The notes: a model not told the origin generated them from the sequence alone. A stretch of DNA of 64,000 nt from Alcaligenes sp. (GCA_052109075.1 JBQEAN010000004.1:15692-79691); one strand, 5' to 3'. Positions 37,210-60,395 are shown, counted from the stretch's first letter. Made by a program: numbers and translations.

Positions 37210-37211
37210 GC

Positions 37212-43635: not shown

Positions 43636-43649
43636 TTCGGAAAATCAGC

Positions 43650-44912: not shown

Positions 44913-44940
44913 TAGGCAGTGAGCTTTTGGTTTTAAGATT

Positions 44941-44975: not shown

Positions 44976-45006
44976 AGTATTAATTGAATCGGGGTAGTGG
45001 ATTATT

Positions 45007-47217
45007 ATGAATCCAGCAAATGTTCAAAAAGCTTTAGACGCATTTTTACGGGCAGATTATTCAGCTGCAATTAAAATATATCGGGAGCTGGGTACATTGC
45101 TTGGTGAGCAGTATTTCAAAGCAAATATAGAGATTTGCCATGCTCGCCTTGGCCAGAGTGAGGCTGGAGCTAGTTCTGTTGTTGATGTTGTTGTTGAAAA
45201 TGTTAATAGTAAAGAAGGTATAGCGAAGAAAAAGAAAAAAGAAAATCCTGCTTCGTTGGATTGGCGTGGCCATATGGAGCTTTCTAGGAAAGATCCTGTG
45301 TGGTACGTTTTGTCCGTTAAGGAAGGTGCAGAGCTACGGGTAGAAGTTTCAGCGGATTATTATGAGACTGACGAGAAAAATAGAAAAGCTGTGTTTTTGT
45401 TAAAAGGATTTGATAAAAAGGGAAATGAAGTCGATGAGAGTTTTGGGAAGATGGCAAAGTCTAGTCATCTTCAGGCTAGATTTAAGTATCTCCCTGCTAC
45501 GTTCGGAAAAAGACAACAGGTACACACATTCATAGTTCCTGATGGGGTTGTAGAAATGCATCTCGGATTATGTGGATTCAATCTTCAAAAAAATGAAAAG
45601 GTTTTCGTTGACAGCGTTAAGGTTAAGGAAAAACGAGCAAAGGGTAAACAGGAGGATTTTGTCCCTCCTAGCGAACTAGCCGCTGAAATTAGCATACTGG
45701 GATGGCCTGAGTACCCCGATAATGGAAAGCCTTATGTGCTAGGAGTAATGGATGAATTTACAGCCGGATGTTTTGAGCAGGATCTGAATCTCATTCAACC
45801 TAGGCCAGATAATTGGTATGCTCTTTTGGAAAAATACAAACCAGAGTTGATTTTTATTGAAAGTGCATGGAAGGGGAATTACGGGAGTTGGCAATATAGA
45901 GTTGCAGAGTATTCTAATAAGCCTGGGCAAGAAGTTGCTCAGCTTTGCAGCTATGCCCGTGAGAAGGGGATACCAACTGTATTTTGGAATAAAGAAGATC
46001 CCGTTCATCATGACAAATTCATGTGTAGCGCTAAGCTAGTCGATGGGATCTTCACTACTGACGCAAATATGAAAGAATCATATTTCCGTAAAACAGGTAA
46101 TCCTAATATTCACGCACTTCCCTTTGCCGCCCAGCCAGCGCTGCATCGACCAGCGCCATTAAATGGGCGGAAGCAGAAATTGTGCTTTGCGGGAAGCTGG
46201 TATGGAAATCGACATGCAGAGCGAGGCCAGTCCATGCGTTGGCTTTTGGAAACTGCTAATCAGTACGATCTGGATATTTATGATCGCAATCATGGTACGG
46301 GGGTTTTCCCCTTTCCGGATGAATTCCAGAAAGGAATCAAAGGGAGCTTGCCCTATAAAGCACTTTGTGAGGAATACAATCGCTATCGTGCATTCCTAAA
46401 TGTGAACTCGGTGGTCGATTCTCCTACAATGTTCTCGCGCCGTGTCTTTGAGCTGATGGCTTGCGGCACCCCTATTGTGAGCACCTATGCCAAGGGGATT
46501 GAGAATCTGTTTGAGTCCGATGCTGTTTGGCTAGTTCGTAATCGTGAGGAAGCTCAAGAAGCGATTCATACATTAATGACTAATGATGCAGAGTGGCGCC
46601 GTCGGAGTTTGGCTGGGATTAGAGAAGTGTTTGCAAAGCATACTTATGCACATCGGCTGAACACTATCTTTACTCATCTGAATGCTGCGACGCGTTTGCC
46701 TACGGATCCACCTGTGATGTTGTTCGCAAAAGCCAATAACTCAGAAGCCATGGGAGCGTTGGTGAAGTTTGCCAAGGAACAGGAGTATCGCCAATTTGTT
46801 CTGGGCATTGAGTGCTCGCCAAGTGCTGCAACCAATTTCAGCGATATTGACGAGAGTATCGTGGTTTTGAGCCCAGGAGGCCATGCCTCTTGGGCGCAGG
46901 AACAGGGGGCAGCTTATCCAATCATGGGGTGGATTGGGAGCGGGCACTGGTACGGACCGCATTATTTGCGAGATTTGGCCAATGCTAGTCTTTATGAACC
47001 CGGGCTTGCTGGATGGGCGAAGGCGATTGGACAGGACCGTTTTAGTGCTGGTGGTGAGGCTGATTTATGCTCAGTCTTATGGCGTTCCAAGGAGTTCTTG
47101 GCTGTCTATATAAACGCTCAGCCGGACGGCAGTGTGAATCGGGATGATCTGTATTTTGTTGATAGTGATCAGCTTGTATTGAATGGTGCTGCCTCGCAGG
47201 CAATGGTGGGAGTGTAA
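45007..47217 (+). CDS. Multidomain glycosyltransferase: TPR-like start, beta-rich module, CgeB/DUF3880-type GT-B domain, C-terminal GT-A-like remnant
   Basis: IESAW.GN, PTVFWNKEDP, FTTD, LNVNSV.DSPTMFSRRVFE and HTYAHRL. It is a paralogue of 55516-56604. Confidence 0.75.
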   Translation: MNPANVQKALDAFLRADYSAAIKIYRELGTLLGEQYFKANIEICHARLGQSEAGASSVVDVVVENVNSKEGIAKKKKKENPASLDWRGHMELSRKDPVWYVLSVKEGAELRVEVSADYYETDEKNRKAVFLLKGFDKKGNEVDESFGKMAKSSHLQARFKYLPATFGKRQQVHTFIVPDGVVEMHLGLCGFNLQKNEKVFVDSVKVKEKRAKGKQEDFVPPSELAAEISILGWPEYPDNGKPYVLGVMDEFTAGCFEQDLNLIQPRPDNWYALLEKYKPELIFIESAWKGNYGSWQYRVAEYSNKPGQEVAQLCSYAREKGIPTVFWNKEDPVHHDKFMCSAKLVDGIFTTDANMKESYFRKTGNPNIHALPFAAQPALHRPAPLNGRKQKLCFAGSWYGNRHAERGQSMRWLLETANQYDLDIYDRNHGTGVFPFPDEFQKGIKGSLPYKALCEEYNRYRAFLNVNSVVDSPTMFSRRVFELMACGTPIVSTYAKGIENLFESDAVWLVRNREEAQEAIHTLMTNDAEWRRRSLAGIREVFAKHTYAHRLNTIFTHLNAATRLPTDPPVMLFAKANNSEAMGALVKFAKEQEYRQFVLGIECSPSAATNFSDIDESIVVLSPGGHASWAQEQGAAYPIMGWIGSGHWYGPHYLRDLANASLYEPGLAGWAKAIGQDRFSAGGEADLCSVLWRSKEFLAVYINAQPDGSVNRDDLYFVDSDQLVLNGAASQAMVGV

Positions 47218-47220
47218 ATA

Positions 47221-49353
47221 ATGAGTAAACGTGTATTGGTCTGCGGTAGCCCGGACTTGAACTTCATTGATGGCTCTTCTATTTGGGCTCAGACCATTGC
47301 TTTAGCCTTTGCGGCGACTGGCCAAGCGGAGGTAGAGTTTATTGCCAAGAGCAAGCCGGAAAGAGATGAACTGTTTGCCCCATTGAGAAGTGCTGACCGA
47401 CTTACCATTGTGAATGGGACAGATCCAAGCTATTGGAATGGGAAAGGTTTTAAGCGCCTGACTTTGCCAATGATGGCGGAGTTATCAGTTAAATTGGATC
47501 AAGCCAACCCCTATGACGCTGTGGTGGTGCGTGGGCTGGATATTGCCATAGCGTTGTTGGACCATCCTGCTCTTCTGGCAAAATGCTGGCTCTATTTGAC
47601 GGATATTCCGCAGCTGGTAGGTGAGTACCCTCCTGAGTTACGCGAGAAGATGCGCCGTATGGCGACAGGTTGCCAGCGCCTTTTGTGCCAAACTCAAGGT
47701 TTTGTGAATCTGTGGAAAGAGCTGGTTCCAAGTGTCAGCCTTGATAAGTTCAGCCTTTATACGCCAGTCATCCCCGACCTACCTGCTAGCCTCACTCCGT
47801 TAAGCCAGAGATCTATGCGGGCAGTCTATGCGGGTAAGTTTAAAGCAGACTGGATGACGCTGGAGATGACAGAGAGCTGGTCTATCGTTCATGCCGAGGT
47901 TCCGGGTAGTGAACTGGTCATGATTGGGGACAAAATCCACAATGAAGCAGGCTGGCCAGAGTATAAAGGGCGCATGCAGCAAGCGTTAGAAGCTACGGCA
48001 GGTTTGCAATGGTTGGGGGCGCAATCTCGTGAATCTGTGCAGGCTCAGTTGCAATCTGCGAGGGTGGGGCTGTCCTGGCGTGCCGAGAGTATGAACGATA
48101 CAGTGGAGTATTCGACTAAGATTCTTGAATACGGTGGGGCGGGCTGCGCCGCCATTTTGAACCGGAATACTTTGCATGAGCAACTATTAGGTGTGGATTA
48201 TCCTTTGTTTGCTAACAGTGCAGAGGAGTTCTCGCGTCAGTTGCGTAGAGCATTCACAGAGCCGGCTGTTGTGGAGGCCGCTGCTAATGCTTTGACTCAG
48301 TTAGCTCGCCGTCACACTTTTTCGCAAAGGGTGAAGGAGATTCAAACTTGGCTGCAAGTAGTTCCTGAGAGAACAGCCGTTAATGGTAAGGTGCGTGTGC
48401 TGGTGGCTGGACACGATCTGAAGTTCTTTGCTTTGTTGCAGGATGCCCTGGAGTCAACTGGTCAGTTTGAGTTCTTGGTGGATACTTGGGCAGGCCACGA
48501 TAAGCATGATGAACGAAGGAGTTTTGAGCTTTTAGAGCAAGCAGACATTATCTTTTGTGAGTGGTGCCTAGGCAATTTGAAATGGTACTCAAATAACAAA
48601 AAGCCACACCAGCGACTAGTAGCCAGGTTTCATGCTCAAGAACGAACACTTCCATATGTGGTTGAAGCAAATTGGGAAAATATTGACCATATTAGTTATG
48701 TAAGTGAATTTATAAGGAAGGAAGGCCAAAATGCATTTGGATTTCCGGACGAAAGAGTTTCCGTGATACCAAATCTATTGGACTCTAATAAATTCACGCC
48801 ATTGAAAAAAGCAGGAGATGCCAGTTATACCTTAGGGATGATTGGTGTGGCTCCATCCTTGAAGAGGTTGGATCGAGCTATTGATTTATTGGAAGCGTTG
48901 TTGGATGATGATGCGAGATATTGCTTGCGGATAAAGGGGAAAAATCCGCTTGATTATGGATGGCTTTTAAAGCGCGAGGATGAGCTTCAGTACTATAAAA
49001 ATATTTATAAGCGAATCAATCAAAACTCTCGGTTACGACATAAGGTTATATTTGATCCGCCGAATGATGATGTGAATGATTGGTTGTCAATGGTGGGTTT
49101 TATTCTGTCACCTTCTGATTTTGAGTCATTTCATATGGCTGTTGGTGAGGGTATGCTTACAGGGGCTGTTCCTATTATTTGGAATTGGGAGGGGGCTGGA
49201 GATATATGGGGGGAGCAATGGGTAGTGAAGGATGTAATAGAGGCTAAGGCGGCTATAAAAAAATGGGAAATTGGATCCCTGGGTATAGAAAAGTCCCTCA
49301 GTAATTTGTCTGCCAATAGAGTGGTGGAAGAATGGAAGAGAATCCTGAGTTAA
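47221..49353 (+). CDS. Two-domain GT-B (GT4-like) glycosyltransferase, candidate capsule polymerase
   Basis: Domain 1 has YAGKF and EYSTKILEY. Domain 2 has VAGHDLKF, VIPN and SDFESFHMAVGEGM (ExxxxxxxE). Confidence 0.78.
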   Translation: MSKRVLVCGSPDLNFIDGSSIWAQTIALAFAATGQAEVEFIAKSKPERDELFAPLRSADRLTIVNGTDPSYWNGKGFKRLTLPMMAELSVKLDQANPYDAVVVRGLDIAIALLDHPALLAKCWLYLTDIPQLVGEYPPELREKMRRMATGCQRLLCQTQGFVNLWKELVPSVSLDKFSLYTPVIPDLPASLTPLSQRSMRAVYAGKFKADWMTLEMTESWSIVHAEVPGSELVMIGDKIHNEAGWPEYKGRMQQALEATAGLQWLGAQSRESVQAQLQSARVGLSWRAESMNDTVEYSTKILEYGGAGCAAILNRNTLHEQLLGVDYPLFANSAEEFSRQLRRAFTEPAVVEAAANALTQLARRHTFSQRVKEIQTWLQVVPERTAVNGKVRVLVAGHDLKFFALLQDALESTGQFEFLVDTWAGHDKHDERRSFELLEQADIIFCEWCLGNLKWYSNNKKPHQRLVARFHAQERTLPYVVEANWENIDHISYVSEFIRKEGQNAFGFPDERVSVIPNLLDSNKFTPLKKAGDASYTLGMIGVAPSLKRLDRAIDLLEALLDDDARYCLRIKGKNPLDYGWLLKREDELQYYKNIYKRINQNSRLRHKVIFDPPNDDVNDWLSMVGFILSPSDFESFHMAVGEGMLTGAVPIIWNWEGAGDIWGEQWVVKDVIEAKAAIKKWEIGSLGIEKSLSNLSANRVVEEWKRILS

Positions 49354-49359
49354 GAAAGT

Positions 49360-50958
49360 ATGAATGAAAATAATATCTTAGATTGTTTGAATGAAAGAGG
49401 TATTGAGTATATCAATAAGATTATTGGCTCTAATAATAAAACCGATTATAGGAAAATAAAAACACTATTCTTAAAAGGAATTGTTGAGCTAAATAATTTC
49501 CCTGATTGTGAAATAGATATTGGTGATTTTGAATGGGCCGGTGGTGACCGAGATAGGAATTGGTGGTGGCAAATGCAGTCTTTGCCTTTTCTTGCTTGGT
49601 ATATAAATAGTTATAATTTGCAGACTGATTTAGAAAAGAAGAGCTTTTTTAACCTCTGCTGGAGATCGCTAGAGAATTGGAAAGATAAAGCATTAAAGGC
49701 AGAGTCACCCTTAGTTTGGCATGACCATGCGTCAGCATTTCGTGTGAGAAATATTGTTAATTGGCTAGTTTTTTGTTGTATTCATAATTATTCTCAATTG
49801 AATGATGATATAAAAAATCAAGTGTCAATTTTGGTTAAGGAGCATTTGTGTTGGTTGTCTCAGGATGAGAATTTTTCTAGATATACGAATCATGGCTTTG
49901 ACCAAGCAATGATTTCATTGGTTGTCTCTTTGATGTTTGGTGGGGATTTATTTGAAAAAATTAAAATAATAAATAAAGAGAGGCTATTGGAAGAATTGCG
50001 GCATGCATTTACTGATGAGGGGGTTCATAAAGAAAATAGCCCTGGATATCAGAAGTTTATGTTGGAGAGAGTGCGCCAGCTTCGGATAATTAAAATTCTT
50101 GGTGAAACAGATGTTTCTGATTTGGTTGGCTCTTATGTGAATAAAGCCGAGGTTTTTTTGCGTGCTCTAACATTGCCTAATGGGTATCTGCCGCTGATTG
50201 GGGATACTAAGCTTGAAATGGGGCTCGTGGGTAGTGATATTGATTGTGCTAAGGTACATCCGTATTTGGATGTCTATGACTATTCAAAATCTGGGTATTT
50301 AATTGCAAAAGGCGTTGATGGGCGGGAGAAGAGTTTTTTTCTGCTTCTAAAAAACAGCCATCTCTCTAATTATCATAGACATGATGACGATATGATGATT
50401 TATTTGTTTTATGATGGTGAGGTTGTTTTTGGTGATGGCGGGCTTTTTAATCACCAGGAGAAGGATGGCAGGCGGAAAAATATAAGATCTTACAAATCTC
50501 ACTGCGTCCCTTATATTGATTCTTTGGCAATTAGGGATAGACGAAATTTGTCAGAAGATGCTGTTGTTGAAGCGCTCAGTGATCGTGAGTTTTATATGGA
50601 GAGCTCCATGTTTGGTAAGCGCTTGTGTCGACGAGTGTGTTTGGAGATTGAGTCTGGTCTGAAGCTGAGGATTAATGACCACCCTAAAGAAGAAATTAAT
50701 GAAAAGGTATGGGCAAATTTTTTAATTCCTCATGAAAAAAAATTCGAAATTGAAAATAATGCTGCTGTTTTTCGATTTCAAGGTTTTTCTTGTTTTATTA
50801 GGTATGATGCTGGCACAGAATTTTTTAGTGTTCTGGGTTGGGATGATGTGGATTATTATAATGGTGCATATTTTTCTGAAAAATATGGTGAAATTAAATC
50901 CGCCTGCCGTATAAGTTTTTCATGTGCTGATTTGGAGATTGATTTTAATTCAAATTAA
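49360..50958 (+). CDS. Heparinase II/III-like protein (putative polysaccharide lyase)
   Basis: WHDH...R, NHG..Q, GVHKENSPGYQ, PLIGD, H.H.D and DGG motifs. No signal peptide. Low GC. Confidence 0.78.
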   Translation: MNENNILDCLNERGIEYINKIIGSNNKTDYRKIKTLFLKGIVELNNFPDCEIDIGDFEWAGGDRDRNWWWQMQSLPFLAWYINSYNLQTDLEKKSFFNLCWRSLENWKDKALKAESPLVWHDHASAFRVRNIVNWLVFCCIHNYSQLNDDIKNQVSILVKEHLCWLSQDENFSRYTNHGFDQAMISLVVSLMFGGDLFEKIKIINKERLLEELRHAFTDEGVHKENSPGYQKFMLERVRQLRIIKILGETDVSDLVGSYVNKAEVFLRALTLPNGYLPLIGDTKLEMGLVGSDIDCAKVHPYLDVYDYSKSGYLIAKGVDGREKSFFLLLKNSHLSNYHRHDDDMMIYLFYDGEVVFGDGGLFNHQEKDGRRKNIRSYKSHCVPYIDSLAIRDRRNLSEDAVVEALSDREFYMESSMFGKRLCRRVCLEIESGLKLRINDHPKEEINEKVWANFLIPHEKKFEIENNAAVFRFQGFSCFIRYDAGTEFFSVLGWDDVDYYNGAYFSEKYGEIKSACRISFSCADLEIDFNSN

Positions 50959-51027
50959 AAAGGCTCTCGTTATGGATGGGTTTGTTCAAAATAGAGCATG
51001 GGATTTTATATAAAATTTAATTAAGCC

Positions 51028-52209
51028 ATGAAAGAAAAGCGTTCTATTCGTTTAAAGGAAGTTGGCGCCTCAGTGAGGAGGTTGAATTTTCCACCACAGC
51101 AGTATCTAGTCGGCCGTACAGGGTTAAGTATTGGTTATGGATATACATTTTTAACGGATGATGATGGGCTTGCTTTAACTGCTTTGCCAGCTGCTTTGGA
51201 TGATCGGGATATTTTCTTAGTTGGTGGTTCTTCTATTGAAGCAAGCTACTGTGATATTAATAAGCGTGCTTCATTTTTGTTGCAAGAAAAGTTGTTAAGT
51301 GTTGGTATTGGTAATGTTTGTTACAATATGGGTGCATCCGGCTGTACTTCTTTGAATCTATTTAATTCTATTGTGAATAAGTTGATTGGCCGGACGGGGG
51401 ATGTGGTTTATTTTATTCCTTCAAATGATGTGCGTGCTTTTGAGTTTAAAAAAGGATACATTAATAGATCGAAATATTTTGCTAACATCATTCCCGCAAA
51501 AAATGAGCTAGGCGACTCTAGGTTGTTTGACCAGAATAAGCAACAACTGCTTTCAATGTTGAGTATGTTGGAGTTCTTTTGTAAAGAATTTGGTTTTCGT
51601 TTTTTTGTTTCAGGCGTTATTTATCGTGATGAAGATCTGCGATACCAGCAGATTAATGAAATGGCTGAAAAATTTTGTCGGGATAGGGGTATTGATTTTA
51701 TAACAATAGGAAACTATCCTAAAGATTCGTTTTATGATTCTGTTCACCTGACTGCTATTGGAAATGAATATATTTCTGATGCGTTGGTTGGTTTTTTGCT
51801 AAATAAAAATAAAAGTAAATCAACTTCTTTAATTAATAAAAATAAAGTTTATGTTGATGCTTGGGTTAGGTTTGACTTAGAGGAAAAAAGAGAAATATCA
51901 CTTTTCGTTGATGTGGAGTCGACTGGCGATGTTTTGGGATCCTCTATGTTGGTGAATTTCAATTTTTTAGATAATGAGCAGCCGGGTAATAAGAGTCTTT
52001 ACTCGGCTGGTTTAAGCTTTTCGAAGATTATTGGTTGCTATAAATACTTGGAGCTTCCGGAGAAAGGAAAGCGCTGTGTAATGCAATATACCTTTGTTTT
52101 TCCTGATGGCGTTAGCTCAGTAGGTGTGACATTGAAAAAATGGAATTCAGCGAAGGAGTTTATTATTCATAATGCTGTGGCTTATGCACGCTGTAATGGT
52201 GCAGCGTAA
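51028..52209 (+). CDS. SGNH/GDSL-fold protein with C-terminal beta-rich module
   Basis: Block I VGGS, block II MGASG, block III SND and block V DSVH. Low GC. Confidence 0.7.
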   Translation: MKEKRSIRLKEVGASVRRLNFPPQQYLVGRTGLSIGYGYTFLTDDDGLALTALPAALDDRDIFLVGGSSIEASYCDINKRASFLLQEKLLSVGIGNVCYNMGASGCTSLNLFNSIVNKLIGRTGDVVYFIPSNDVRAFEFKKGYINRSKYFANIIPAKNELGDSRLFDQNKQQLLSMLSMLEFFCKEFGFRFFVSGVIYRDEDLRYQQINEMAEKFCRDRGIDFITIGNYPKDSFYDSVHLTAIGNEYISDALVGFLLNKNKSKSTSLINKNKVYVDAWVRFDLEEKREISLFVDVESTGDVLGSSMLVNFNFLDNEQPGNKSLYSAGLSFSKIIGCYKYLELPEKGKRCVMQYTFVFPDGVSSVGVTLKKWNSAKEFIIHNAVAYARCNGAA

Positions 52210-52258: not shown

Positions 52259-53221
52259 TTGCAAGTGACTAGGCGCTTTGTTCTGCTGACTGTGGATACA
52301 GAGGCCTTACCTCGACGCGCCGCTGAGGACCATATTCGACGCTTAGTCTGGGGTGTGCATCCGCGTGGCTCTGCCGGAATTCAGGAAATCTCATCAATTG
52401 GTGGTGAGTTTGGAGCTAAGCACGTCTTCTTTGCGGATTTTTGTGGAGCTTATGGTGATCAGTCTCAAATGCAAGAGGTTGTACGGTGGCTAGACGCTCA
52501 AGGTCAGGATGTGCAGCTTCATACTCATCCTGAAACTTTGCCTGATGCATTTTGGCAGGAGCATAGTCAATCGGCATTGCCGCGTTACATGAATGATTAT
52601 GGTGATCAAGCACGAGCTGTGTTTGTTTTGAGCCATTTCAGTCGGATAATTACAGAGATCACGGCAAAGCCAGTCCTTGCCCACCGCGCAGGCTCCTTTC
52701 GCTGGAATGCCCTGACCATACGTGCTTTACAAGAACTCGATATTCCCTTGTCCTTTAACCAATCCATGCGTGCCCTGGAAAGTGGCCGAGGTGTCCACGG
52801 CGAGCCCGACTGTCTGCCTTACTCTTGGTCAAACGGCGTCATCGAAGTCCCCGTTACCGAACGTTGGGTGCCAGGCGTCCCGGGTTTCCGTCCTGATCGT
52901 TGGGTTAGCCTGACTTATCCGGAATCTCCGTACTTTAAATTTGGCTCGCGCCCTATTCCTGTTTGGAAACATCCTTTTGCACCTAAGCCCGCACCGGTTA
53001 CGGTTGTACTCTTACACTCTTGGTCTCTGCTTGATCGTGATGAGGCAGGCCACGCCGTGTATCGAGATGATCGCTTGTTGGAGGGCTACCGGAACTTCCT
53101 GCGCCGCCTTGTCAAGGATTGTGAGGTCATCACGACCGCGGAGTTTTTAGAGCTACGTGAGCAGGGTAAAATCGACATTTCGCGAACAGTTAACTTAGAG
53201 CAGGTAGAAGCACAAATATGA
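52259..53221 (+). CDS. Polysaccharide deacetylase-like protein, copy 1
   Basis: TVDTE, QLHTHP, HRAG, IEVP and LHSW (NodB/CE4-like metal motifs). The start is TTG 52259 or GTG 52265. Confidence 0.75.
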   Translation: MQVTRRFVLLTVDTEALPRRAAEDHIRRLVWGVHPRGSAGIQEISSIGGEFGAKHVFFADFCGAYGDQSQMQEVVRWLDAQGQDVQLHTHPETLPDAFWQEHSQSALPRYMNDYGDQARAVFVLSHFSRIITEITAKPVLAHRAGSFRWNALTIRALQELDIPLSFNQSMRALESGRGVHGEPDCLPYSWSNGVIEVPVTERWVPGVPGFRPDRWVSLTYPESPYFKFGSRPIPVWKHPFAPKPAPVTVVLLHSWSLLDRDEAGHAVYRDDRLLEGYRNFLRRLVKDCEVITTAEFLELREQGKIDISRTVNLEQVEAQI

Positions 53222-54198
53222 GGGATCGCTACGCAATGATTACGGTGGATACGGAGGCGCTACCTAAGCGAGCATCCGAAGACCACGTCAATCGTCTGAT
53301 ATGGGGGCGGTTCCCAAAGGGGACAGCTGGTGTGGCTGAAATGTGCCGCATCGGTGATGAGTTTGGTGCCAAGCACGTTTTTTTTACGGATTTTTGTGGT
53401 GCGTACGCTTATCTGGATGAGTTGAAAGAAGTTGTGCGTTGGCTGGACGAGCAGGGCCAGGATGTGCAGTTGCATACTCATCCTGAATATCTACCAAACA
53501 GCTTCTGGGAAGAGCACGGCCTGCCTAATCGCCCTCAATACATGAATCAGTACACCGAGCAGGAGCGCGCAGCGTTTGTGTTTCGGCATTTTGCGCATTT
53601 GATGACGGAGCAAACGGGCAAGCCGGTTCTGGCGCATCGTGCGGGCTCGTTCCGCTGGAACGCGGATTCAATCCGGGCCTTGAAAGAAGTGGGTATCCCG
53701 CTGTCCTTCAATAATTCGGTATGTGCGGTACATAATGGCCAATGCATATATAGCGAGGCTACGAATGAGCCCTATGTCTGGTCTAACGGTATTATTGAAA
53801 TTCCCACGACCGAGAAGCGGATTCTGGGTAGGTTAGGCAAGCCGGACTGGTGGGTTCGACTGACTTACCCAGAGTCCCGCTACTTTCGCTTTCGCCCTTG
53901 GTGGGGCAATTTGTTGTTTAACGCAGTCAGTGGTAGCCCACCATTTGCTGTGTTTTTGCTGCACTCTTGGTCCTTGCTGTATTGGGACGAGAATGGTTTG
54001 GGTGAATACCGGGATGACAGCCGCTTAGAGGGATACCGCAAGTTAATGTCACGTCTGACCAAGGACTACGACGTGATCACGACAGCAGAGTTTCTGGATT
54101 TGCACGCGAGGGGCAAGATCTCCACGCCGCACTCAGTAGATTTATCTTTAGCGCAGTATGCTCCTCCACAAAAGAAAAACAAGAAAGTGAAGGTTTAG
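53218..54198 (+). CDS. Polysaccharide deacetylase-like protein, copy 2
   Basis: It has the same motifs as copy 1 and is a tandem paralogue with an ATGA overlap. Confidence 0.78.
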   Translation: MRDRYAMITVDTEALPKRASEDHVNRLIWGRFPKGTAGVAEMCRIGDEFGAKHVFFTDFCGAYAYLDELKEVVRWLDEQGQDVQLHTHPEYLPNSFWEEHGLPNRPQYMNQYTEQERAAFVFRHFAHLMTEQTGKPVLAHRAGSFRWNADSIRALKEVGIPLSFNNSVCAVHNGQCIYSEATNEPYVWSNGIIEIPTTEKRILGRLGKPDWWVRLTYPESRYFRFRPWWGNLLFNAVSGSPPFAVFLLHSWSLLYWDENGLGEYRDDSRLEGYRKLMSRLTKDYDVITTAEFLDLHARGKISTPHSVDLSLAQYAPPQKKNKKVKV

Positions 54199-54202
54199 CG
54201 TA

Positions 54203-55519
54203 ATGGCGCTGAGATTTTTTCAAAGGCTGCTGGGTGAACCCTGGTTGGCCTTTAATCGTTTTCTGACAGTCCGCATGTTGCGACGCAAAACGCAGCAGCG
54301 CAGACCTGTGCAAACGCCTTATGAACCTGTGCCAGGACGCCTACTGTATGTGGCGGCCAGTGCCTTGCCGTACCATATCAGTGGCTATACCACCCGTACG
54401 CACGCTATTGCTCAGGCCTTGCAGGCGGCTGGTGGGGATGTGCGGGTGCTGACTCGGCCAGGGTATCCGTGGGACCGCAAGGATCGGTTAGCGGAGGCTT
54501 TGGCCGATACAACTATGGTTGATCAGGTTCAGTATGTGCATATCCACCGCCCCGCTAATAATCGTCCGGTTTTGCAGTTCGCCATCGAAGCCGCTGTCTC
54601 CATTGCCCAAGAGGCCATCAAGCAGCGCGTTTCGGTCATCCATGCAGCCTCCAACCATGTCAACGCTTTACCTGCCCTGATCGCTGCTCGCCAGCTGGGT
54701 ATTCCGTTCCAATACGAAATGCGTGGCCTGTGGGAACTGAGCCGTGCTTCCCGTATGCCGGAGTTCCGTGATTCTCAAGGTTTTAAGCAAGGTCTGGAGC
54801 TAGAAGGTTTGGTCGCCAGCCAAGCAGATCGTTTGTTCGTTATTTCCGAGCAACTGGGCCGCTATGCCTGCGAGCACTGGGATGTAGATCCGGCCCGCAT
54901 GGGCCTGATGCCCAATTGTATTGATCCGTCGCGCTTTATGCCGGGTGACGCGCAGGATGTGCAGCCCAACACGATTGTGTATGCTGGCTCCCTGATTGTC
55001 TATGAAGGGCTGGATGTATTGATTGATGCCGTGGCGGACTTGGTAGGCCATGGCAAGGATGTGACCCTGACCATTATCGGAGACGGGGAGGCGCGCGCTC
55101 AATTGCAGGCTCAGGTGCAAAGCTTGGGAATGGAAAAGCATGTGCTGTTTGCAGGTCGTGTGTCACCCGAGGAAGCCCGTGCCTTGCAGGCCAAGGCCGC
55201 CTTGGTCTGTATTCCGCGCCGTCCGTTTGAAGTGTGCCGTATCGTGCCTCCCATTAAGTTGGTCGAGGCGATGGCAATGGGCAAGCCGGTGTTGGTACCG
55301 GATTTGCCGGTGTTTCAGGATGAGGTCGGTGCCTGTCGTTCCGTACGCTTTTTCAAGGCAGGTGATGTTCAAGATCTGGCCCGCGTTCTGGATGAAACCT
55401 TTCAGGCTGGCCCTGAAGTCTTGGCGCAGGATGGCGCTTTGGCGCGAGAGGAAGCGACTCAACGTCGTAGCTGGGCTGACTTTGTCGTACATGCTTTGCC
55501 AGCCGGGGCTCACTCATGA
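54203..55519 (+). CDS. GT4 family glycosyltransferase
   Basis: SGY..RT, YEMRG.WE, YAGSL..YEGLD and PIKLVEAMAMGKPV. Confidence 0.9.
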   Translation: MALRFFQRLLGEPWLAFNRFLTVRMLRRKTQQRRPVQTPYEPVPGRLLYVAASALPYHISGYTTRTHAIAQALQAAGGDVRVLTRPGYPWDRKDRLAEALADTTMVDQVQYVHIHRPANNRPVLQFAIEAAVSIAQEAIKQRVSVIHAASNHVNALPALIAARQLGIPFQYEMRGLWELSRASRMPEFRDSQGFKQGLELEGLVASQADRLFVISEQLGRYACEHWDVDPARMGLMPNCIDPSRFMPGDAQDVQPNTIVYAGSLIVYEGLDVLIDAVADLVGHGKDVTLTIIGDGEARAQLQAQVQSLGMEKHVLFAGRVSPEEARALQAKAALVCIPRRPFEVCRIVPPIKLVEAMAMGKPVLVPDLPVFQDEVGACRSVRFFKAGDVQDLARVLDETFQAGPEVLAQDGALAREEATQRRSWADFVVHALPAGAHS

Positions 55520-56604
55520 TCGGCCGCGCAATCCGGGCGTTGGGCGCGCGTGTCTACACACACCCTACGGTTAGCGAGGACGGGCGGCCCACTGGGTCGT
55601 TTGGCCAGTTAAAGGTGGCCCTGGTCTCGGATTACTTCACGGCTGACTGCTTATCGGCAGAGTGCCAAATTCGCATTCTGAATCCTCGTAATTATGAAGA
55701 AGTGATCTCCACCTGGAAACCAGATCTGGTTTTTGTGGAGTCGGTGTTTCATGGTTTGGGTGGGGTGTGGCGGTACGAGCTGGCCAAACAGTCACGTTTG
55801 ATTCGCCTGCGCACACCACGCACGATTTACAAGCTGGTGCAGTTTGCTAAAGATCAGGGTGTGCCCACGGTGTTCTGGAATAAGGACGACGGGGCGTACT
55901 TCGAGCACTTTATTGATGTTGCCAAGGCTTTTGACTATGTGTTCACTACGGACAGCGATTGCCTGCCGCGTTATCGCGCCCAGGTAGGTCCAGATGTGCC
56001 GGTACATACCTTGAGCATGCCGTATCAACCCGCGTTTCATAGCTTCACGGGTTTTGATTTTACGCGCAAGGAAGGTTGTTTTACCGGCAGTTATTACCGA
56101 CGTATTTTGAGTGAACGCCGTCGTTTTCTGGACATGGTTTTCGGGGCCTGTGAGGACTCGCAGATGCATCTGAATGCCTACGACAGAAATCATGACCGGT
56201 TGTCCCGGCACATTGAGTTCCGTTTTCCTCGTTCCACCCATGTGAAGGTTCACGGCCAAGTGCCGCACCGTGAAACAGGGCGTATCTACAAGGAACATGT
56301 GATGTGCCTGAATGTGAACTCGGTCACGGACTCGGAGACGATGTGTTCGCGCCGTCTGTTGGAAATCTTGGCTAGCGGGGGCATTGCGGTGACCAACCCA
56401 GGTCGCGCAGTGGATCGTTATTTCAGTGATTACTGCCACGTTGTGCACTCCCGTGAGCAGGCCAGTGAATTGTTTGCCCGTTTATGCCAACAAGGCCCGA
56501 CGGCGCAGGACCGTGAGCGTGCGGCTGCGGGGGCGGCGTATGTGCGTCAGTTCCATACCTGGGAGCATCGCCTCCAGGAGTTGGCTGACGTGGTTGGTTT
56601 CTAG
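55516..56604 (+). CDS. CgeB/DUF3880-type glycosyltransferase-like protein
   Basis: KPDLVFVES, PTVFWNKDD, FTTD, LNVNSVTDS.TM.SRR and HTWEHRL. Confidence 0.78.
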   Translation: MIGRAIRALGARVYTHPTVSEDGRPTGSFGQLKVALVSDYFTADCLSAECQIRILNPRNYEEVISTWKPDLVFVESVFHGLGGVWRYELAKQSRLIRLRTPRTIYKLVQFAKDQGVPTVFWNKDDGAYFEHFIDVAKAFDYVFTTDSDCLPRYRAQVGPDVPVHTLSMPYQPAFHSFTGFDFTRKEGCFTGSYYRRILSERRRFLDMVFGACEDSQMHLNAYDRNHDRLSRHIEFRFPRSTHVKVHGQVPHRETGRIYKEHVMCLNVNSVTDSETMCSRRLLEILASGGIAVTNPGRAVDRYFSDYCHVVHSREQASELFARLCQQGPTAQDRERAAAGAAYVRQFHTWEHRLQELADVVGF

Positions 56605-56619
56605 GGTGCGCTTGTTTCC

Positions 56620-58098
56620 ATGATTGTGAGCATTTTTGCGTACCTGATTCAGGCGCTATTCGTTTTAGTGGTAGGGGCCTTTGCCCTGTATGTGGTTCTG
56701 GAACTGCGGGTGTTGCTGATCTCGCGGCGGGTGGAACGTCGCAAGTTAAGTGAACTGGTGCAGTCGACAGTGGTTTTGCAACAGGACTGGTATCCCAAGG
56801 TCAGCGTGTTATTGCCGATCTATAACGAAGCGGCAGTCGTGGAGCGTTTGATCGATGCAGCGTGCCGATTGGATTACCCGGTGTCGGCCTTGGAAATCCT
56901 GGTGCTGGATGACTCCACGGATCAGACCGCGTTGCTGGCTCAGAATAAGGTGGATCAGTTGGCAAAGCAGGGTGTGCCGATCCGCCGTATTCAGCGAACC
57001 GATCGCTCGGGTTACAAGGCGGGGAATCTGGTGCATGGCATTCAGCACTCTCAAGGCGAGTTTTTTGCAATTTTTGATGCAGATTTTTTACCACCGGTCG
57101 ATTTTTTGAAGAAAACAATTCCCCCTTTTAAGGACGGGAAGCTCGGTTTTCTTCAAACCGGCATCGGTTACGAGAACCGAGATCATTCCTTTCTGACCCG
57201 CTTTCAGGCGATGGAGATGGGCCATCAGCAGTACGTGACGGTGGGCTTGAGCGAAGATGGCGATATGGCCTCTTTAAGCGGTAGCTCCTGTGTCTGGCGG
57301 CGCGCTTGCGTAGAGGCATTGGGTGGTTGGAATGCTTCTACCATTACCGAGGACGTAGACCTGGGTTATCGGGCGCAGTTTGGGGAATGGAAATACGCTT
57401 ATTTGCGTGATGTGGTGTCCATGTCCACCTTACCCGAGAACATTAGCGCCTTCCGTGTGCAGCGAGAGCGCTGGGGGCGGGGGCTCATCCACAGTGCCTT
57501 TAAGCACTTGGGGCAGATGTGGCATCAGGACATGCCTTTGATGAAACGCATGCATGCGTTTTCCATGATGTTTTCATCAGTCATGCTGGCATCTATTTAT
57601 GCCTTAATCTTGTTGAGCCTACCGCTGAACTATTTGCTGGATTTTGATCATGTGGTTTTGCAGTGGGGTGCGCCGCTCTTCTTTTTACTGGTAGCCGTCT
57701 GGGCCTTGAATAATGCCTTTGGGGCTCGCAAGGGGGCGCGTTTTGATGACAGGCCCGGCGTACTGGGAACCTTGTGGCATACCTATTTGTATGTCGCCAT
57801 GTTCCCGCCCATGGCTTGGTATTATTTTGTTGGTGGTGTGCGAGCTGCGTTCAAGGTCTATGGGGAATTTAATCGCACGCCCAAAGGCGCAGGCGAGAAG
57901 ACCACAAGACAGCCTCGCATTAATCTGTATTTGCTGATTGGTGAGGTGTTCACCTTCCTGTATTCGGCCTTTGCCTTGTATGTGGCCGTGCGTATGGGCA
58001 ATTACTTGTTGATACCCCTGAACGCGACAGTTTGCGTAGGCTTTGGCATGGTTTTGTACTGGTCCTTTCAAGAAAGGAGAACGCGTGAGCGTAGCTGA
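56620..58098 (+). CDS. Integral-membrane GT2 glycosyltransferase (D,D,D,QxxRW type)
   Basis: N-terminal TM helix, PIYNE, DDSTD, KAGNL, FDAD, TED and QRERW, then several C-terminal TM helices. Confidence 0.9.
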   Translation: MIVSIFAYLIQALFVLVVGAFALYVVLELRVLLISRRVERRKLSELVQSTVVLQQDWYPKVSVLLPIYNEAAVVERLIDAACRLDYPVSALEILVLDDSTDQTALLAQNKVDQLAKQGVPIRRIQRTDRSGYKAGNLVHGIQHSQGEFFAIFDADFLPPVDFLKKTIPPFKDGKLGFLQTGIGYENRDHSFLTRFQAMEMGHQQYVTVGLSEDGDMASLSGSSCVWRRACVEALGGWNASTITEDVDLGYRAQFGEWKYAYLRDVVSMSTLPENISAFRVQRERWGRGLIHSAFKHLGQMWHQDMPLMKRMHAFSMMFSSVMLASIYALILLSLPLNYLLDFDHVVLQWGAPLFFLLVAVWALNNAFGARKGARFDDRPGVLGTLWHTYLYVAMFPPMAWYYFVGGVRAAFKVYGEFNRTPKGAGEKTTRQPRINLYLLIGEVFTFLYSAFALYVAVRMGNYLLIPLNATVCVGFGMVLYWSFQERRTRERS

Positions 58099-58858
58099 AC
58101 CAGCAGGGCAGGAGCGGATTCTGATTACCGGTGCCACCAGTGCGATTGGTGGCGAGCTGGCGCTTTATTACGCCAAACCGGGTACAGAGCTGATGCTGCA
58201 TGGTCGCAATGTCGCCATTCTGGAGCCTTTGGCTGAACGTTGCCGACAGGTGGGGGCGCAGGTGCAGACCCATCAGCTGGATTTGCGTGATCTGGATGCT
58301 TTGCATGGTTGGTTGTCGCAATGTGCTGCGTTTGATCTCGTGATCGTGAATGCGGGCATGAACATTCATGTCGGCCCCAATGGCGAACCCGAGGCTTGGG
58401 AAGAGACTGAGCTGCTGCTGGACATCAATGTGAAAGCGACCTTGCGTGTGGTGCAGTCTGTGTTGCCTGCCATGCGGGCACGGGGGCGTGGTCAGATCGC
58501 TTTGATGAGCTCACTGGCGGCCTACTTTGGATTGCCGACTACGCCGTCTTACAGCGCCAGCAAAGCTGCCGTTAAAGCTTACGGTGAAGGCCTGCGTGGT
58601 TGGTTGGCTCCCGAGGGGATCAAGATCAATGTTGTGATGCCAGGCTATGTCAGCTCGCCCATGTGTGACGCCATGCCTGGCCCCAAACCATTTCTGTGGA
58701 CACCACAGCGGGCGGCCCAGCGTATTGCGCGTGGTCTTAAGGCCAATAAAGCGCGTATCAGCTTTCCTTTCCCTCTTAATCTGGGTTGCTGGTTTCTGGC
58801 GGTACTGCCTGCACGAGTGTCCGTCTTTATTCTGAGCAAAATCGGTTATGACGCTTGA
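58085..58858 (+). CDS. wcbP: Short-chain dehydrogenase/reductase, WcbP-like
   Basis: TGATSAIG, NAG and S...YSASK. It precedes a wcbQ-like gene, as in Burkholderia wcb loci. Confidence 0.82.
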   Translation: MSVAEPAGQERILITGATSAIGGELALYYAKPGTELMLHGRNVAILEPLAERCRQVGAQVQTHQLDLRDLDALHGWLSQCAAFDLVIVNAGMNIHVGPNGEPEAWEETELLLDINVKATLRVVQSVLPAMRARGRGQIALMSSLAAYFGLPTTPSYSASKAAVKAYGEGLRGWLAPEGIKINVVMPGYVSSPMCDAMPGPKPFLWTPQRAAQRIARGLKANKARISFPFPLNLGCWFLAVLPARVSVFILSKIGYDA

Positions 58859-60395
58859 GCCCGGTTTCTGGCCGGTAATCCTGGCCGCTCTGTCGGGCTT
58901 GGCTTTGACAGTAGGCTTGGAGCGTTGTTTGCAGACGGCGGTCAGCTTGCGTCGTCCGGTTGCTGCCTGGGCCTTGCACGTGGGCTTGTATGGTTTGACC
59001 TATGTGATTCTGGTCTTTATGCTGGGGCGGCCTATTTTTGCCACTGCTTTGCTGTGTGCGTTTTTTCTGCTGCTGGTTGTCGTCAGTAATGCCAAGTTCA
59101 AGGCCTTGCGTGAAGCTTTTGTTTTCCAGGATTACGAGTACTTTACCGACGCTCTCCGCCATCCTCGGCTCTATATCCCGTTCTTGGGCTGGGGCAAATT
59201 CTTTCTGGCAGCCGCAGGTTTTATTGCTGCCTTGACGATAGGTTTGTGGCTGGAAACAGTGCCGGCCTTGCGGGCTGCCTGGACGGCTCAATGGGGCGCT
59301 TTGGCTTTGCTCGCAGTGTTGAGCCTGGGTTTGCTGTTATGGGGCAATAGTGCGCGTTTGAAGGTGCAAATTGCACCGGAGCAGGATGTGCAAGCCTTAG
59401 GCTTATTGGCCAGCTTCTGGCGCTATTGGCAGCAAGGACGAAAACCCCCGATTTTATCTTCTCCATTTGCCCAAATGTCCCCGCAGACTTTGTCTGCTTT
59501 TTCCGGGGCTGGTCCCTTGGCGGATCAGCCTCATATGGTTTCTGTGCAAAGCGAGTCTTTCTTTGATGCCCGACGCATTTGGGATGGGATTCGGCCAGAG
59601 ATTCTGGCGGAGTTTGATCGCTTCAAGTCTCAAGCCAGCGCTTATGGTTGCCTGCAGGTTCCTGCTTGGGGGGCGAACACGGTACGTTCAGAGTTCTCCT
59701 TTTTGAGCGGTATCGAGAACACGGCTCTGGGCGTACATAGATTCAATCCGTATCGCGCGGTTTGTGCAGGCTGGTCGGTTGCGACCTTGGCCTCTTGGCT
59801 AAAGAGCCAGGGGTATCGCACAATTTGTATTCATCCTTATCCCGCCAGTTTCTACCAACGCAATCGCGTGTTCCCGCTGTTTGGCTTTGATGAGTTTTTG
59901 GATATCAAGGCGTTTGGCGCTGTGGAGCGTACTGGCCCTTATATCGGTGACCAGGCTGTGGCAGATAAAGTCGCCAGTGTGTTGGAGCAGGCGCAAGGTC
60001 CAGTCTTTATTCATGTCATCACCATGGAAAACCACGGGCCTTTGCATCTGGAAAAGGTGGCAGCGGGTGATATCGAGAGCGTGTATCGCCAAGCCCCCCC
60101 CGATGCATGTGAGGACCTGACGATTTATCTGCGCCACATCCGCAATGCCGATGCCATGCTGACACGCTTGCGTGGCGCTCTGAACTCGTCAGAACGGCCT
60201 GCCAGCTTGTGCTGGTATGGCGACCATGTTCCCATCATGCCCTCGGTGTATGCCGCCCTGGGCACGCCTTGCGGGGATGTGGATTACTTTATCTGGAACT
60301 CCACCGGAGATCACAAGGGGACGCAGCATCAAGATGCCGCGATTCATGATCTGGCGCGCGAGTGGATGCAGTTAAGTGGGGTAAAGGCCAAGTAG
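58848..60395 (+). CDS. wcbQ: LtaS/sulfatase-superfamily membrane protein, WcbQ-like
   Basis: N-terminal TM bundle, QSESF, GANTVRSEF (Thr nucleophile), TMENHGP and YGDH. Confidence 0.85.
   Translation: MTLEPGFWPVILAALSGLALTVGLERCLQTAVSLRRPVAAWALHVGLYGLTYVILVFMLGRPIFATALLCAFFLLLVVVSNAKFKALREAFVFQDYEYFTDALRHPRLYIPFLGWGKFFLAAAGFIAALTIGLWLETVPALRAAWTAQWGALALLAVLSLGLLLWGNSARLKVQIAPEQDVQALGLLASFWRYWQQGRKPPILSSPFAQMSPQTLSAFSGAGPLADQPHMVSVQSESFFDARRIWDGIRPEILAEFDRFKSQASAYGCLQVPAWGANTVRSEFSFLSGIENTALGVHRFNPYRAVCAGWSVATLASWLKSQGYRTICIHPYPASFYQRNRVFPLFGFDEFLDIKAFGAVERTGPYIGDQAVADKVASVLEQAQGPVFIHVITMENHGPLHLEKVAAGDIESVYRQAPPDACEDLTIYLRHIRNADAMLTRLRGALNSSERPASLCWYGDHVPIMPSVYAALGTPCGDVDYFIWNSTGDHKGTQHQDAAIHDLAREWMQLSGVKAK

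Follow-up and report, generated by a model that had tools for sequence, protein, structure and literature searches.

In this study, we analyzed a capsule locus in a DNA stretch of 64,000 nucleotides from Alcaligenes sp. (GCA_052109075.1, JBQEAN010000004.1:15692-79691; hereafter the window). The locus comprises a polyketide synthase (PKS) gene and an alpha-oxoamine synthase (AOS) gene, the capsule export genes kpsMTED, a variable core, and a block of seven tightly coupled genes at its end (Table 1). All seven genes are located on the plus strand and are translationally coupled with gaps of -4, 4, -4, 15, about -14 and -11 nt. The next gene is a convergent pgi. The GC content of the block is 0.49-0.56, compared to about 0.56-0.60 in the flanks and 0.35-0.50 in the variable core. 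A preliminary description of the block as a coupled unit with host-like GC content that closes a capsule locus lacking kpsC, kpsS and vexE was confirmed, with "host-like" being roughly right.

Table 1. Genes and gene groups of the capsule locus; positions are counted from the first nucleotide of the window.
Position	Strand	Gene or group	Family matches and remarks
28296..37209	+	Fully reducing PKS (KS-AT-DH-MT-ER-KR-ACP) and AOS	Proposed lipid module partner of the SDR and the LtaS-like protein
37176..41088	+	Export genes Wza/KpsD, KpsM, KpsT, KpsE	Poly_export/SLBB, NF050053 (KpsM), ABC_tran, TIGR01010 (KpsE)
41113..42351	+	Coiled-coil protein specific to cassette-type loci	No family hit
42514..52209	+	Variable, low-GC serotype core	WecB, WecC, two large CgeB-like glycosyltransferases, two unknowns
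52259..53221	+	dA1, cytoplasmic CE4/NodB-like putative de-N-acetylase	No Pfam hit; paralog of dA2
53218..54198	+	dA2, CE4/NodB-like putative de-N-acetylase	No Pfam hit
54203..55519	+	GT4 retaining glycosyltransferase	PF00534/PF13439
55516..56604	+	CgeB-like glycosyltransferase	PF13524
56620..58098	+	BcsA-like membrane GT2	PF13641; 1 N-terminal and about 5 C-terminal TM helices
58085..58858	+	Classical SDR (RkpH/WcbP-like)	PF00106; probable start GTG 58085 with an AGGAG site upstream, rather than TTG 58043
58848..60395	+	Membrane GacH/LtaS-like phosphoglycerol-transferase-family protein (RkpI-like)	PF00884; 5 N-terminal TM helices, catalytic domain predicted periplasmic

Protein families and predicted folds

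The family assignments of the preliminary description were found to be right. The two putative deacetylases dA1 and dA2 are 57% identical to each other. For dA2, 494 homologs were detected, of which the best 120 showed 61-85% identity. An AlphaFold model (pLDDT 85) has a predicted CE4/NodB-like fold, and the top Foldseek hits were the CE4 deacetylase 3rxz and the lipid-linked-sugar deformylase ArnD (8t0j), with TM values of 0.46-0.62 to CE4 members and ArnD. dA1 keeps the family-invariant D-T-E, H-T-H, R and LLHSW motifs. The invariant residues D11, E13, H86, H88, R141 and H249 resemble the CE4 motifs, but are not identical to them. No signal peptide or TM helix was found in the deacetylases, the GT4 or the CgeB-like protein, so they are inferred to act in the cytoplasm.

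The nearest solved relatives of the GT4 are MshA and PimA. Across loci, the GT4 proteins are 44-86% and the CgeB-like proteins 43-98% identical. The CgeB-like protein is not a divergent KpsS, since a profile-profile comparison with hhalign gave a probability of only 0.6%. The membrane GT2 carries invariant DD(S), DAD, TED, QRERW and F..TPK motifs, the last being gating-loop-like. It aligned to BcsA over residues 53-475 (E 1.5e-39) and to ceramide glucosyltransferase with an E value of 8e-7. BcsA was also the best match of its structure model (pLDDT 83), the top structural hit being a BcsA-pEtN-transferase complex. The features of processive membrane GT2 synthases, i.e. the motifs, the gating loop, and interface and TM helices after the GT domain, are thus present, while processivity itself remains an inference. 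The LtaS-like protein aligned to GacH (E 8.5e-14) with conservation of SES, the catalytic Thr in G-x-x-T-x-x-EF, NH and GDH, and therefore has the features of LtaS/GacH phosphoglycerol transferases.

Absence of KpsC, KpsS and VexE

None of the 20 ORFs from 28296 to 60395 matched the KpsC/KpsS, KpsF/KpsU or VexE families. Also, profile searches with PF05159 (KpsC/KpsS) and with the VexE model NF011721 returned no match in the whole assembly, and tblastn found no KpsC/KpsS either. The assembly is only 85.9% complete, and even kdsA was not found by tblastn. However, PF05159 was also absent from four Alcaligenes relatives including a complete chromosome. Complete genomes with the cassette described below and without PF05159 are those of Alcaligenes sp. 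WGS1538 and D. desulfuricans SFAD67; VexE was searched for only in the former of these two and was not found. The same VexE model detected the protein with 670-920 bits in five other genomes of our set (G166, G005, G014, G026 and G028).

Distribution and conservation of the terminal genes

The gene order dA-GT4-CgeB-GT2-SDR-LtaS is kept at 45-75% identity in about 45 of 65 loci from Beta-, Delta- and Gammaproteobacteria, next to variable regions. Among 50 genomes carrying a dA homolog, a linked KpsE was found in 46 and a WcbT/RkpG-like AOS in 47. PF05159 was detected in only 7 of these 50 genomes; three of the 7 have only dA or a partial block, and in two others KpsCS lies beside a second, divergent KpsMTE locus. 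Of about 46 genomes with the full cassette, 42 lack PF05159.

As the preliminary description had suggested a test of co-occurrence and exclusion by phylogenetic profiling, an even sample of 301 genomes of the order was examined. In this sample, 23 genomes had a strong KpsE: 17 had KpsCS and none of these had the cassette, 4 had the cassette and no KpsCS, 1 had VexE (Vi-type) and 1 was unclear. The predicted result was thereby obtained for five of the seven genes, namely the two deacetylases, the GT4, the CgeB-like glycosyltransferase and the GT2, which we refer to as the cassette. The SDR and LtaS-like genes do not exclude kpsSC. Sister loci read KpsC-KpsS-SDR-LtaS with PKS/AOS nearby and contain no cassette homologs. 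KpsCS and the cassette therefore occupy the same slot in front of SDR-LtaS. The PKS/AOS module is also common with KpsSC, the AOS ortholog being present in 10 of 17 KpsCS genomes, so the PKS lipid is not itself the alternative to the KpsSC system. Genomes with two KpsE loci carry two priming systems: cassette plus VexE in G005, G014, G026 and G028, and cassette plus KpsCS in G013, G032 and G045. One exception is Bordetella pseudohinzii, in which intact KpsC-KpsS-KdsA directly follows the cassette in the same locus.

The cassette-linked KpsE proteins form one group with an SH-aLRT support of 100, while the Vi-type KpsE/VexD proteins fall outside this clade. KpsE, KpsM and KpsT are 42-74% identical within the cassette type, but only 22-44% identical to the KpsCS type. 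In contrast, AOS, SDR and LtaS are about equally similar in both types, and so is Wza in most KpsCS-type loci. All 25 cassette-type KpsM proteins have Gln at the position of the essential canyon residue Arg94 and an acidic residue at the position of Gln181 of the solved KpsM, but two KpsCS-type KpsM proteins also have Gln94. Since the cassette type is one clade, the complementarity with KpsCS reflects essentially one evolutionary event plus inheritance rather than many independent replacements, and the same holds for the KpsM signature.

GT2 and SDR are encoded as one ORF in Desulfovibrio and Ruminobacter. The coiled-coil protein encoded after kpsE was found only in the 3 cassette genomes among 22 KpsE-positive genomes, next to KpsE in two of them and about 2.4 kb downstream in the third. 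Homologs of this protein are fused to an FkbM methyltransferase or to a GT4.

Proposed function of the two modules

The best explanation of these data is that the terminal block joins two modules. In this view, the cassette forms a conserved set acting at the cytoplasmic face that does the job of KpsS/KpsC in classical ABC-transporter capsules: it would build a conserved, non-Kdo oligosaccharide primer or linker on a membrane lipid, which the serotype-specific polymerases would then extend and the co-evolved KpsMT-KpsE-Wza machinery would export. The SDR and the GacH/LtaS-like protein belong with the PKS and AOS at the other end of the locus, and together they match the rkp-1/wcb-type lipid module. 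PKS plus AOS would give a long-chain alpha-amino ketone, the SDR would reduce it to an amino alcohol, and the LtaS-like enzyme would act on the periplasmic face. We assign this explanation a probability of roughly 0.55.

Gene content, conservation, phyletic complementarity with KpsCS, the shared gene slot, the single KpsE clade and the GT2-SDR fusions are direct results of our analysis. In contrast, it is inferred, without biochemical or genetic evidence for any of these genes, that the cassette primes the polymer, that GT2 acts on the PKS-derived lipid, and that a HexNAc added by the GT4 is de-N-acetylated to give an amino sugar in the linker. Besides this lack of evidence, the restriction of the cassette type to one clade and the only 86% complete assembly, two observations speak against the proposed role. 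The arrangement in B. pseudohinzii shows that cassette and KpsCS are not strictly exclusive, and the cassette could make something that follows a Kdo linker. Also, GT2 carries every hallmark of a processive, channel-forming synthase, which fits a polymer synthase at least as well as a lipid glycosyltransferase.

The preliminary description had proposed that all seven genes constitute a third priming chemistry, in which the membrane GT2 glycosylates the PKS-derived amino-lipid and the other enzymes build a linker recognized by KpsMT. This interpretation is supported only in part. Supported are the existence of a lineage of KpsMTED/PKS loci that lacks KpsSC and VexE and carries the conserved block next to a variable core, and, by the gene fusions, the link between GT2 and the lipid pathway. 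Not supported is the view of the block as one unit, and the acceptor, the sugars and the recognition by KpsMT remain inferred. A more far-reaching possibility, which we consider tentative and slightly less likely than not, is that cassette-type loci define a third class of ABC-transporter capsule assembly beside KpsSC/Kdo and Vi/VexE. In this class, GT2, GT4, the CE4-like deacetylase and the CgeB-like glycosyltransferase would build a non-Kdo linker containing an amino sugar on a PKS-derived sphingoid-like lipid, and a KpsM with a re-tuned binding canyon (Arg94 to Gln, acidic residue at position 181) would recognize it.

Current models give ABC-transporter capsules two reducing-end glycolipids, PG-oligo-Kdo made by KpsSC and the diacyl-HexNAc of Vi (PMC8760489, PMC11041684). 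About one in six KpsE-bearing genomes in our even sample of one large order carried the cassette instead, and it also occurs in Desulfovibrio of the gut and in rumen Succinivibrionaceae. No description of it was found in the literature searched. If the cassette is the primer, capsule-finding tools that key on kpsSC would mis-score these loci and the substrate rule for KpsMT would need widening. Also, the long-standing question of what the rkp-1/wcb PKS lipid does would become testable in tractable strains (Alcaligenes, Paraburkholderia, Nitrosomonas europaea, D. desulfuricans), because the same lipid module is seen with two different glycan-priming cassettes.

Alternative explanations

A first alternative, which we regard as unlikely but as the most likely of the alternatives, is that the cassette makes a conserved glycan of its own or a conserved inner part of the capsule polymer. 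GT2 would then be a BcsA/PgaC-like processive synthase, the product of which would be partly de-N-acetylated by the CE4-like enzymes and decorated with glycerol phosphate by the LtaS-like enzyme, as in BcsA-BcsG or OpgH-OpgB. Priming of the exported polymer would be done by something else, for example an undecaprenyl-phosphate pathway or an unrecognized enzyme. The match of GT2 to BcsA over the catalytic and TM regions, the BcsA-pEtN-transferase complex as its top structural hit, the similarity of the LtaS-like protein to the polymer-decorating GacH, and the presence of KpsCS next to the cassette in B. pseudohinzii are in favor of this explanation. However, the inferred cytoplasmic location of the deacetylases, the GT4 and the CgeB-like protein argues against it, and no separate outer-membrane exporter or PilZ/c-di-GMP part is present. 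Furthermore, the cassette is virtually never found away from KpsMTE/PKS-AOS, the LtaS-like gene is equally linked to KpsCS loci that lack any GT2, and these genomes would still lack any known primer for their KpsMT system.

Very unlikely is that the five genes encode ordinary serotype-specific transferases of one widespread capsule type, for example a ManNAcA-containing polymer, that are conserved only because the locus spread horizontally as a unit. WecB/WecC often accompany the cassette, and the whole locus type is one clade. However, the genes between the export genes and the cassette vary in content and GC even among Alcaligenes species, while the cassette stays constant. It is found with unrelated neighbors, such as a methyltransferase and a heparinase-like gene in Bordetella, and directly beside the PKS with nothing between in Nitrosomonas. 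Its identity across classes equals that of the export core, and this reading does not explain how polymer synthesis starts without KpsSC or VexE. That kpsS/kpsC lie in the unassembled 14% of this genome, although conceivable as even kdsA is missing from the assembly, is most improbable because the complete Alcaligenes chromosome and three other Alcaligenes species with the same locus, as well as most full-cassette genomes, have no PF05159 match.

Comparison with related systems

Like group 2/3-like capsule systems primed by KpsS/KpsC (GT107 beta-Kdo transferases), the locus has KpsM, KpsT, KpsE and KpsD/Wza in one locus with a variable core and conserved flanks, and the cassette presumably has the same role of building a conserved lipid-linked linker. 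It differs in the absence of a PF05159 domain anywhere in the assembly and of Kdo genes in the locus, in the presence of four unrelated enzyme families including a deacetylase and a membrane GT2, and in the divergent KpsM canyon. The Vi-antigen system (VexE acyltransferase, diacyl-HexNAc terminus) is also an ABC-transporter capsule system without kpsSC (PMC8760489) and occurs in the same bacterial order, sometimes in the same genome as a second locus, but Vi loci have no PKS/AOS module.

The Sinorhizobium rkp-1 region (rkpA, rkpG, rkpH, rkpI, rkpJ) and the Burkholderia wcbP-T genes encode a PKS/FAS-like protein, an AOS-like acyltransferase, an SDR and a membrane protein together with capsule export genes. 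In rhizobia, these are needed for K-antigen and are thought to make or modify a lipid carrier (PMC4881576, PMC3557214). The corresponding four components are all present in the locus described here, with gene-by-gene equivalence inferred from domain type rather than from sequence comparison with the named rkp or wcb genes. Those systems include a KpsS-like gene (rkpJ; wcbO/wcbA), and this position is taken here by dA-GT4-CgeB-GT2.

By analogy only, as sequence similarity is weak, the combination of a GT4 with a putative de-N-acetylase resembles GPI (PIG-A/PIG-L), mycothiol (MshA/MshB) and NodC/NodB, where a HexNAc transferase is followed by a cytoplasmic de-N-acetylase. Nod factors leave the cell through a KpsMT-like ABC-2 exporter. 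With BcsA-BcsG (pEtN cellulose) and OpgH-OpgB, the block shares a membrane GT2 with QxxRW and a gating loop that is encoded with a membrane alkaline-phosphatase-family transferase. It differs from these in having no PilZ domain, BcsB or outer-membrane porin, in the occurrence of the LtaS-like gene in loci without the GT2, and in the fusion of the GT2 to a cytoplasmic SDR in some taxa.

Organization of the capsule locus

The window lies on contig C4 of a 3.48-Mb assembly with a completeness of 85.9% and carries one co-directional capsule locus (see table of features). Its closest relatives are found in Alcaligenes species, with 83-86% identity for the second putative deacetylase (dA2) and 89-96% for the alpha-oxoamine synthase (AOS). 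The locus starts with a fully reducing PKS (KS-AT-DH-MT-ER-KR-ACP) and a BioF/SPT-family AOS, followed by Wza/KpsD, KpsM, KpsT and KpsE, a coiled-coil protein, WecB and WecC, two large CgeB-like GTs and two unknown proteins in a low-GC stretch (0.35-0.50), and finally by the block of seven genes studied here. These seven genes are coupled by overlaps or gaps of at most 15 nt and end 22 nt before a convergent pgi gene. The variable core drops to 35-40% GC and its content differs between Alcaligenes species, which looks like a horizontally exchanged serotype region.

Coordinates of features in the window and in related loci
Feature	Position	Remark
Capsule locus	window 28296-60395	co-directional
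kpsM	window 38439-39242
Coiled-coil protein	window 41113-42351	follows kpsE
Low-GC part of the variable core	window 45000-52200	35-40% GC
SDR ORF as listed, overlap with GT2	window 58043-58098	TTG start at 58043; overlap of 56 nt
Probable SDR start	window 58085	GTG; gives a 257-aa protein
GT2-SDR fusion proteins in three Desulfovibrionaceae loci and Ruminobacter amylophilus	L046:13325-15520, L047:4942-7146, L058:13373-15592, L061:18397-20943	731-849 aa

In a preliminary description based on the sequence alone, the block had been described as two deacetylases, a GT4, a CgeB-type GT, a membrane GT2, an SDR and an LtaS-like protein, and these family assignments are correct. One refinement concerns the two putative deacetylases, which match no Pfam model. 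They are 57%-identical paralogs of a large, highly conserved family, whose best 120 homologs are 61-85% identical. A confident structural model (pLDDT 85) has a predicted CE4/NodB-type barrel, and its closest solved structures are a mycobacterial CE4 protein and ArnD, which deformylates a lipid-linked amino sugar. Longer homologs of this dA family (419-559 aa) were inspected as possible informative fusions, but yielded only a weak TPR hit. GT2 has all the BcsA-type motifs (DD, DAD, TED, QRERW, F..TPK) and about six TM helices, and both sequence and fold searches put BcsA first. The last gene encodes a five-TM protein with a periplasmic domain closest to the phosphoglycerol transferase GacH, in which the catalytic Thr and the metal ligands are aligned. 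dA, GT4 and the CgeB-like GT have no TM helix or signal peptide, so they work in the cytoplasm. For the SDR, the GTG given as probable start in the table is preceded by AAGAAAGGAG and yields a protein with a length like that of its homologs.

Search for known capsule primers

No ORF of the locus hits KpsC/KpsS, KpsF/KpsU or VexE models. In addition, profile searches of the whole assembly with PF05159 and the VexE model NF011721 found nothing, and tblastn with Bordetella KpsC/KpsS found nothing either. Thus, the observation that no relative of the known priming enzymes is encoded in this locus was confirmed. Absences in this 86%-complete genome are weak evidence, since tblastn with a Bordetella KdsA also found no kdsA in the assembly, while a second PKS-like gene (32% identity) was detected on contig C2. 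The stronger evidence therefore comes from relatives: four Alcaligenes species, one with a complete chromosome, carry the same locus and have no PF05159 match, and the complete one also lacks VexE. We also asked whether the CgeB-like GT could be a hidden KpsS. A profile-profile comparison gave a probability of only 0.6%, and this possibility was rejected.

Conservation of the gene block

A pattern scan with the dA family found 65 loci. They come from Burkholderiales (Alcaligenes, Achromobacter, Bordetella, the Burkholderia cepacia complex, Paraburkholderia and Herbaspirillum), from Nitrosomonas, Methylobacillus, Rhodocyclaceae/Accumulibacter and Leeia, from Desulfovibrionales, and from Succinivibrionaceae. 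In about 45 of them the order dA (1-2 copies)-GT4-CgeB-GT2-SDR-LtaS is kept at 45-75% identity, which is as conserved as KpsT and KpsE, while the genes upstream vary. Of 50 such genomes, 46 have a strong KpsE within about 15 kb, and 47 have an orthologous AOS on the same contig. dA can occur without the rest of the cassette: two Herbaspirillum loci (L011, L013) and two Succinivibrionaceae loci (L060, L062) have dA, and in Herbaspirillum also SDR-LtaS, but no GT4-CgeB-GT2, and the same genomes have PF05159 proteins.

Two modules in the block

The preliminary description had treated the seven genes as one module replacing KpsS/KpsC, and had named phylogenetic profiling as a test of whether this block excludes kpsSC. 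We took an even sample of 301 genomes of the order, of which 23, including the present one, have a strong KpsE. Of the other 22, 17 have KpsC/KpsS and none of these 17 has the dA family, 3 lack KpsCS and have the cassette, 1 (G166) has VexE beside its KpsE, and 1, whose KpsE lies on a 5.7-kb contig, is unresolved. By contrast, the AOS is present in 13 of the 22 genomes, including 10 of the 17 with KpsCS, and the LtaS-like protein in 9 of the 22, including 6 with KpsCS. The reading of the block as a single unit that excludes kpsSC was rejected for the SDR and the LtaS-like gene.

Inspection of those KpsCS-type loci shows the arrangement KpsC-KpsS-SDR-LtaS, with AOS/PKS alongside in several of them. 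They contain no homolog of dA, GT4, the CgeB-like GT, GT2 or the coiled-coil protein. SDR, LtaS, PKS and AOS are therefore one module that accompanies either KpsC-KpsS or dA-GT4-CgeB-GT2, and these two cassettes occupy the same position. By domain content, the module corresponds to the Sinorhizobium rkp-1 region (rkpA, G, H, I, with rkpJ the KpsS-like gene) and to the Burkholderia wcbP-T genes. According to secondary sources, those are needed for K-antigen and are thought to make or modify a lipid carrier (PMC4881576, PMC3557214).

Cassette genomes with KpsCS or a second export locus

Seven of the 50 genomes carrying a dA homolog have a PF05159 match. Three of them have only dA or a partial block (Herbaspirillum, Succinimonas and a Ruminobacter MAG), and one match is very weak (24 bits). 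In an Enterobacterales MAG, KpsC/KpsS lie beside a second KpsMTE whose KpsE is only 24% identical to that of the window. In a Desulfovibrio MAG, KpsC lies beside a second KpsE-KpsT (KpsE 27% identical to the window's), and KpsS lies on another short contig. Four other cassette genomes with two KpsE genes have VexE next to the second one.

The seventh genome, Bordetella pseudohinzii, is the real exception. Here, a single locus (contig C44) reads SDR-LtaS-Wza-KpsMTE-...-WecBC-GT-methyltransferase-heparinase II/III-like-dA-dA-GT4-CgeB-GT2-KpsC-KpsS, followed by KdsA, AOS and PKS on the other strand, so that an intact KpsC-KpsS-KdsA lies between GT2 and AOS/PKS. This genome also has a second, divergent KpsMTE-Wza locus on contig C1 with no KpsCS or VexE of its own. 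KpsCS may possibly serve that second locus.

Co-variation of the export proteins

In an unrooted KpsE tree of 61 sequences, the cassette-linked proteins form one group with SH-aLRT 100, which has 30 rows and includes the Bordetella one. Two outliers exist, one on a long branch and one just outside the group. The nearest neighbors of the group are KpsCS-type, and the Vi-type proteins are distant. The identities of the export and lipid-module proteins to those of the window are summarized in the following table.

Identity of proteins from both locus types to the proteins of the window
Protein	Cassette-type loci	KpsCS-type loci
KpsE, KpsM, KpsT	42-74%	22-44%
AOS	52-73% outside Alcaligenes	55-70%
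SDR	38-66% outside Alcaligenes	54-62%
LtaS	32-61% outside Alcaligenes	42-50%
Wza	37-66% (three loci)	about 50% in three loci, 30% in one

We also aligned the window's KpsM to the solved KpsM (8TSH family), in which Arg35, Trp45, Arg89 and Arg94 are essential and Gln181 and Arg187 contact the Kdo-PG glycolipid (PMC11041684). The window's protein keeps Arg35, Trp45 and Arg89, but has Gln at position 94, Glu at 181 and Lys at 187. These canyon residues differ in a fixed way in all 25 cassette-type KpsM proteins: Arg94 becomes Gln, an extra Arg sits at position 90, Gln181 becomes Glu or Asp, and Arg187 becomes Lys, Gln or Asn. The pattern is only suggestive and was not counted as independent evidence, since the cassette type is one clade, two KpsCS-type proteins share Gln94, and the TM5 alignment of divergent KpsM proteins is unreliable. 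Of 19 KpsCS-type proteins, 12 have Arg94. With these reservations, the substitutions fit a different, less anionic head group.

Fusion of GT2 and SDR

In three Desulfovibrionaceae loci (two named Desulfovibrio) and in Ruminobacter amylophilus, GT2 and SDR are one uninterrupted ORF with both domain sets. Two further Desulfovibrio loci have the two genes in the same frame, and in the window they overlap. Since the SDR belongs to the lipid module, the fusion argues that GT2 acts in the same pathway. This is the best support for the idea, put forward in the preliminary description, that GT2 glycosylates the PKS-derived lipid. Against it, GT2 looks like a processive synthase. Related GT2 enzymes that make glycolipids do exist: ceramide glucosyltransferase matched at 8e-7, and cyanobacterial MGlcDG synthase is another example. 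Sequence alone does not distinguish between the two.

Proposed role of the cassette

Taken together, the preliminary interpretation of the block as an alternative priming system was partly supported. Gene content and order, the complementarity with KpsCS, the common position of the two cassettes, the grouping of the KpsE proteins and the GT2-SDR fusions result directly from the analysis, while the enzymatic activities, any processivity of GT2 and the following pathway are inferred. In the most likely mechanism, PKS plus AOS would release a methyl-branched long-chain alpha-amino ketone, which the SDR would reduce to an amino alcohol. At the cytoplasmic face, GT2, GT4 and the CgeB-like GT would build a short conserved linker on a lipid acceptor, and one HexNAc of this linker would be de-N-acetylated by dA. 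This would follow the GT4-plus-deacetylase logic of MshA/MshB and PIG-A/PIG-L, MshA being the nearest solved GT4. The large CgeB-like GTs of the variable core would then polymerize a ManNAcA-containing chain, KpsMT-KpsE-Wza would export the product, and the LtaS-like enzyme would modify or transfer it in the periplasm. We assign a probability of about 0.55 to the core claim that the cassette is the functional counterpart of KpsSC, whereas the specific claim that GT2 acts on the PKS lipid remains tentative. The main rival, which we consider less likely, is that the cassette makes a conserved glycan of its own through a synthase-type GT2.

Full-text literature searches found no description of this cassette, and current reviews and primary papers name only the KpsSC and Vi/VexE termini (PMC8760489, PMC12220298, PMC11041684). 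The psc loci of Rubrivivax (PMC3684757) are different clusters and do not represent this cassette. While the lipid module and the export genes are known, the cassette and its complementarity with KpsSC appear to be new.

Coiled-coil protein encoded downstream of kpsE

The coiled-coil protein has no family hit, and a sequence search against the PDB gave no hit. Among the 22 other KpsE-positive genomes of the even sample it was found only in the three cassette-type ones. Its homologs are 390-870 aa in size and are fused to an FkbM methyltransferase (Paraburkholderia tuberum, L027) or to a GT4 (Desulfosarcina, L054), which recalls the coiled-coil chain terminators and rulers of ABC-dependent O-antigens.
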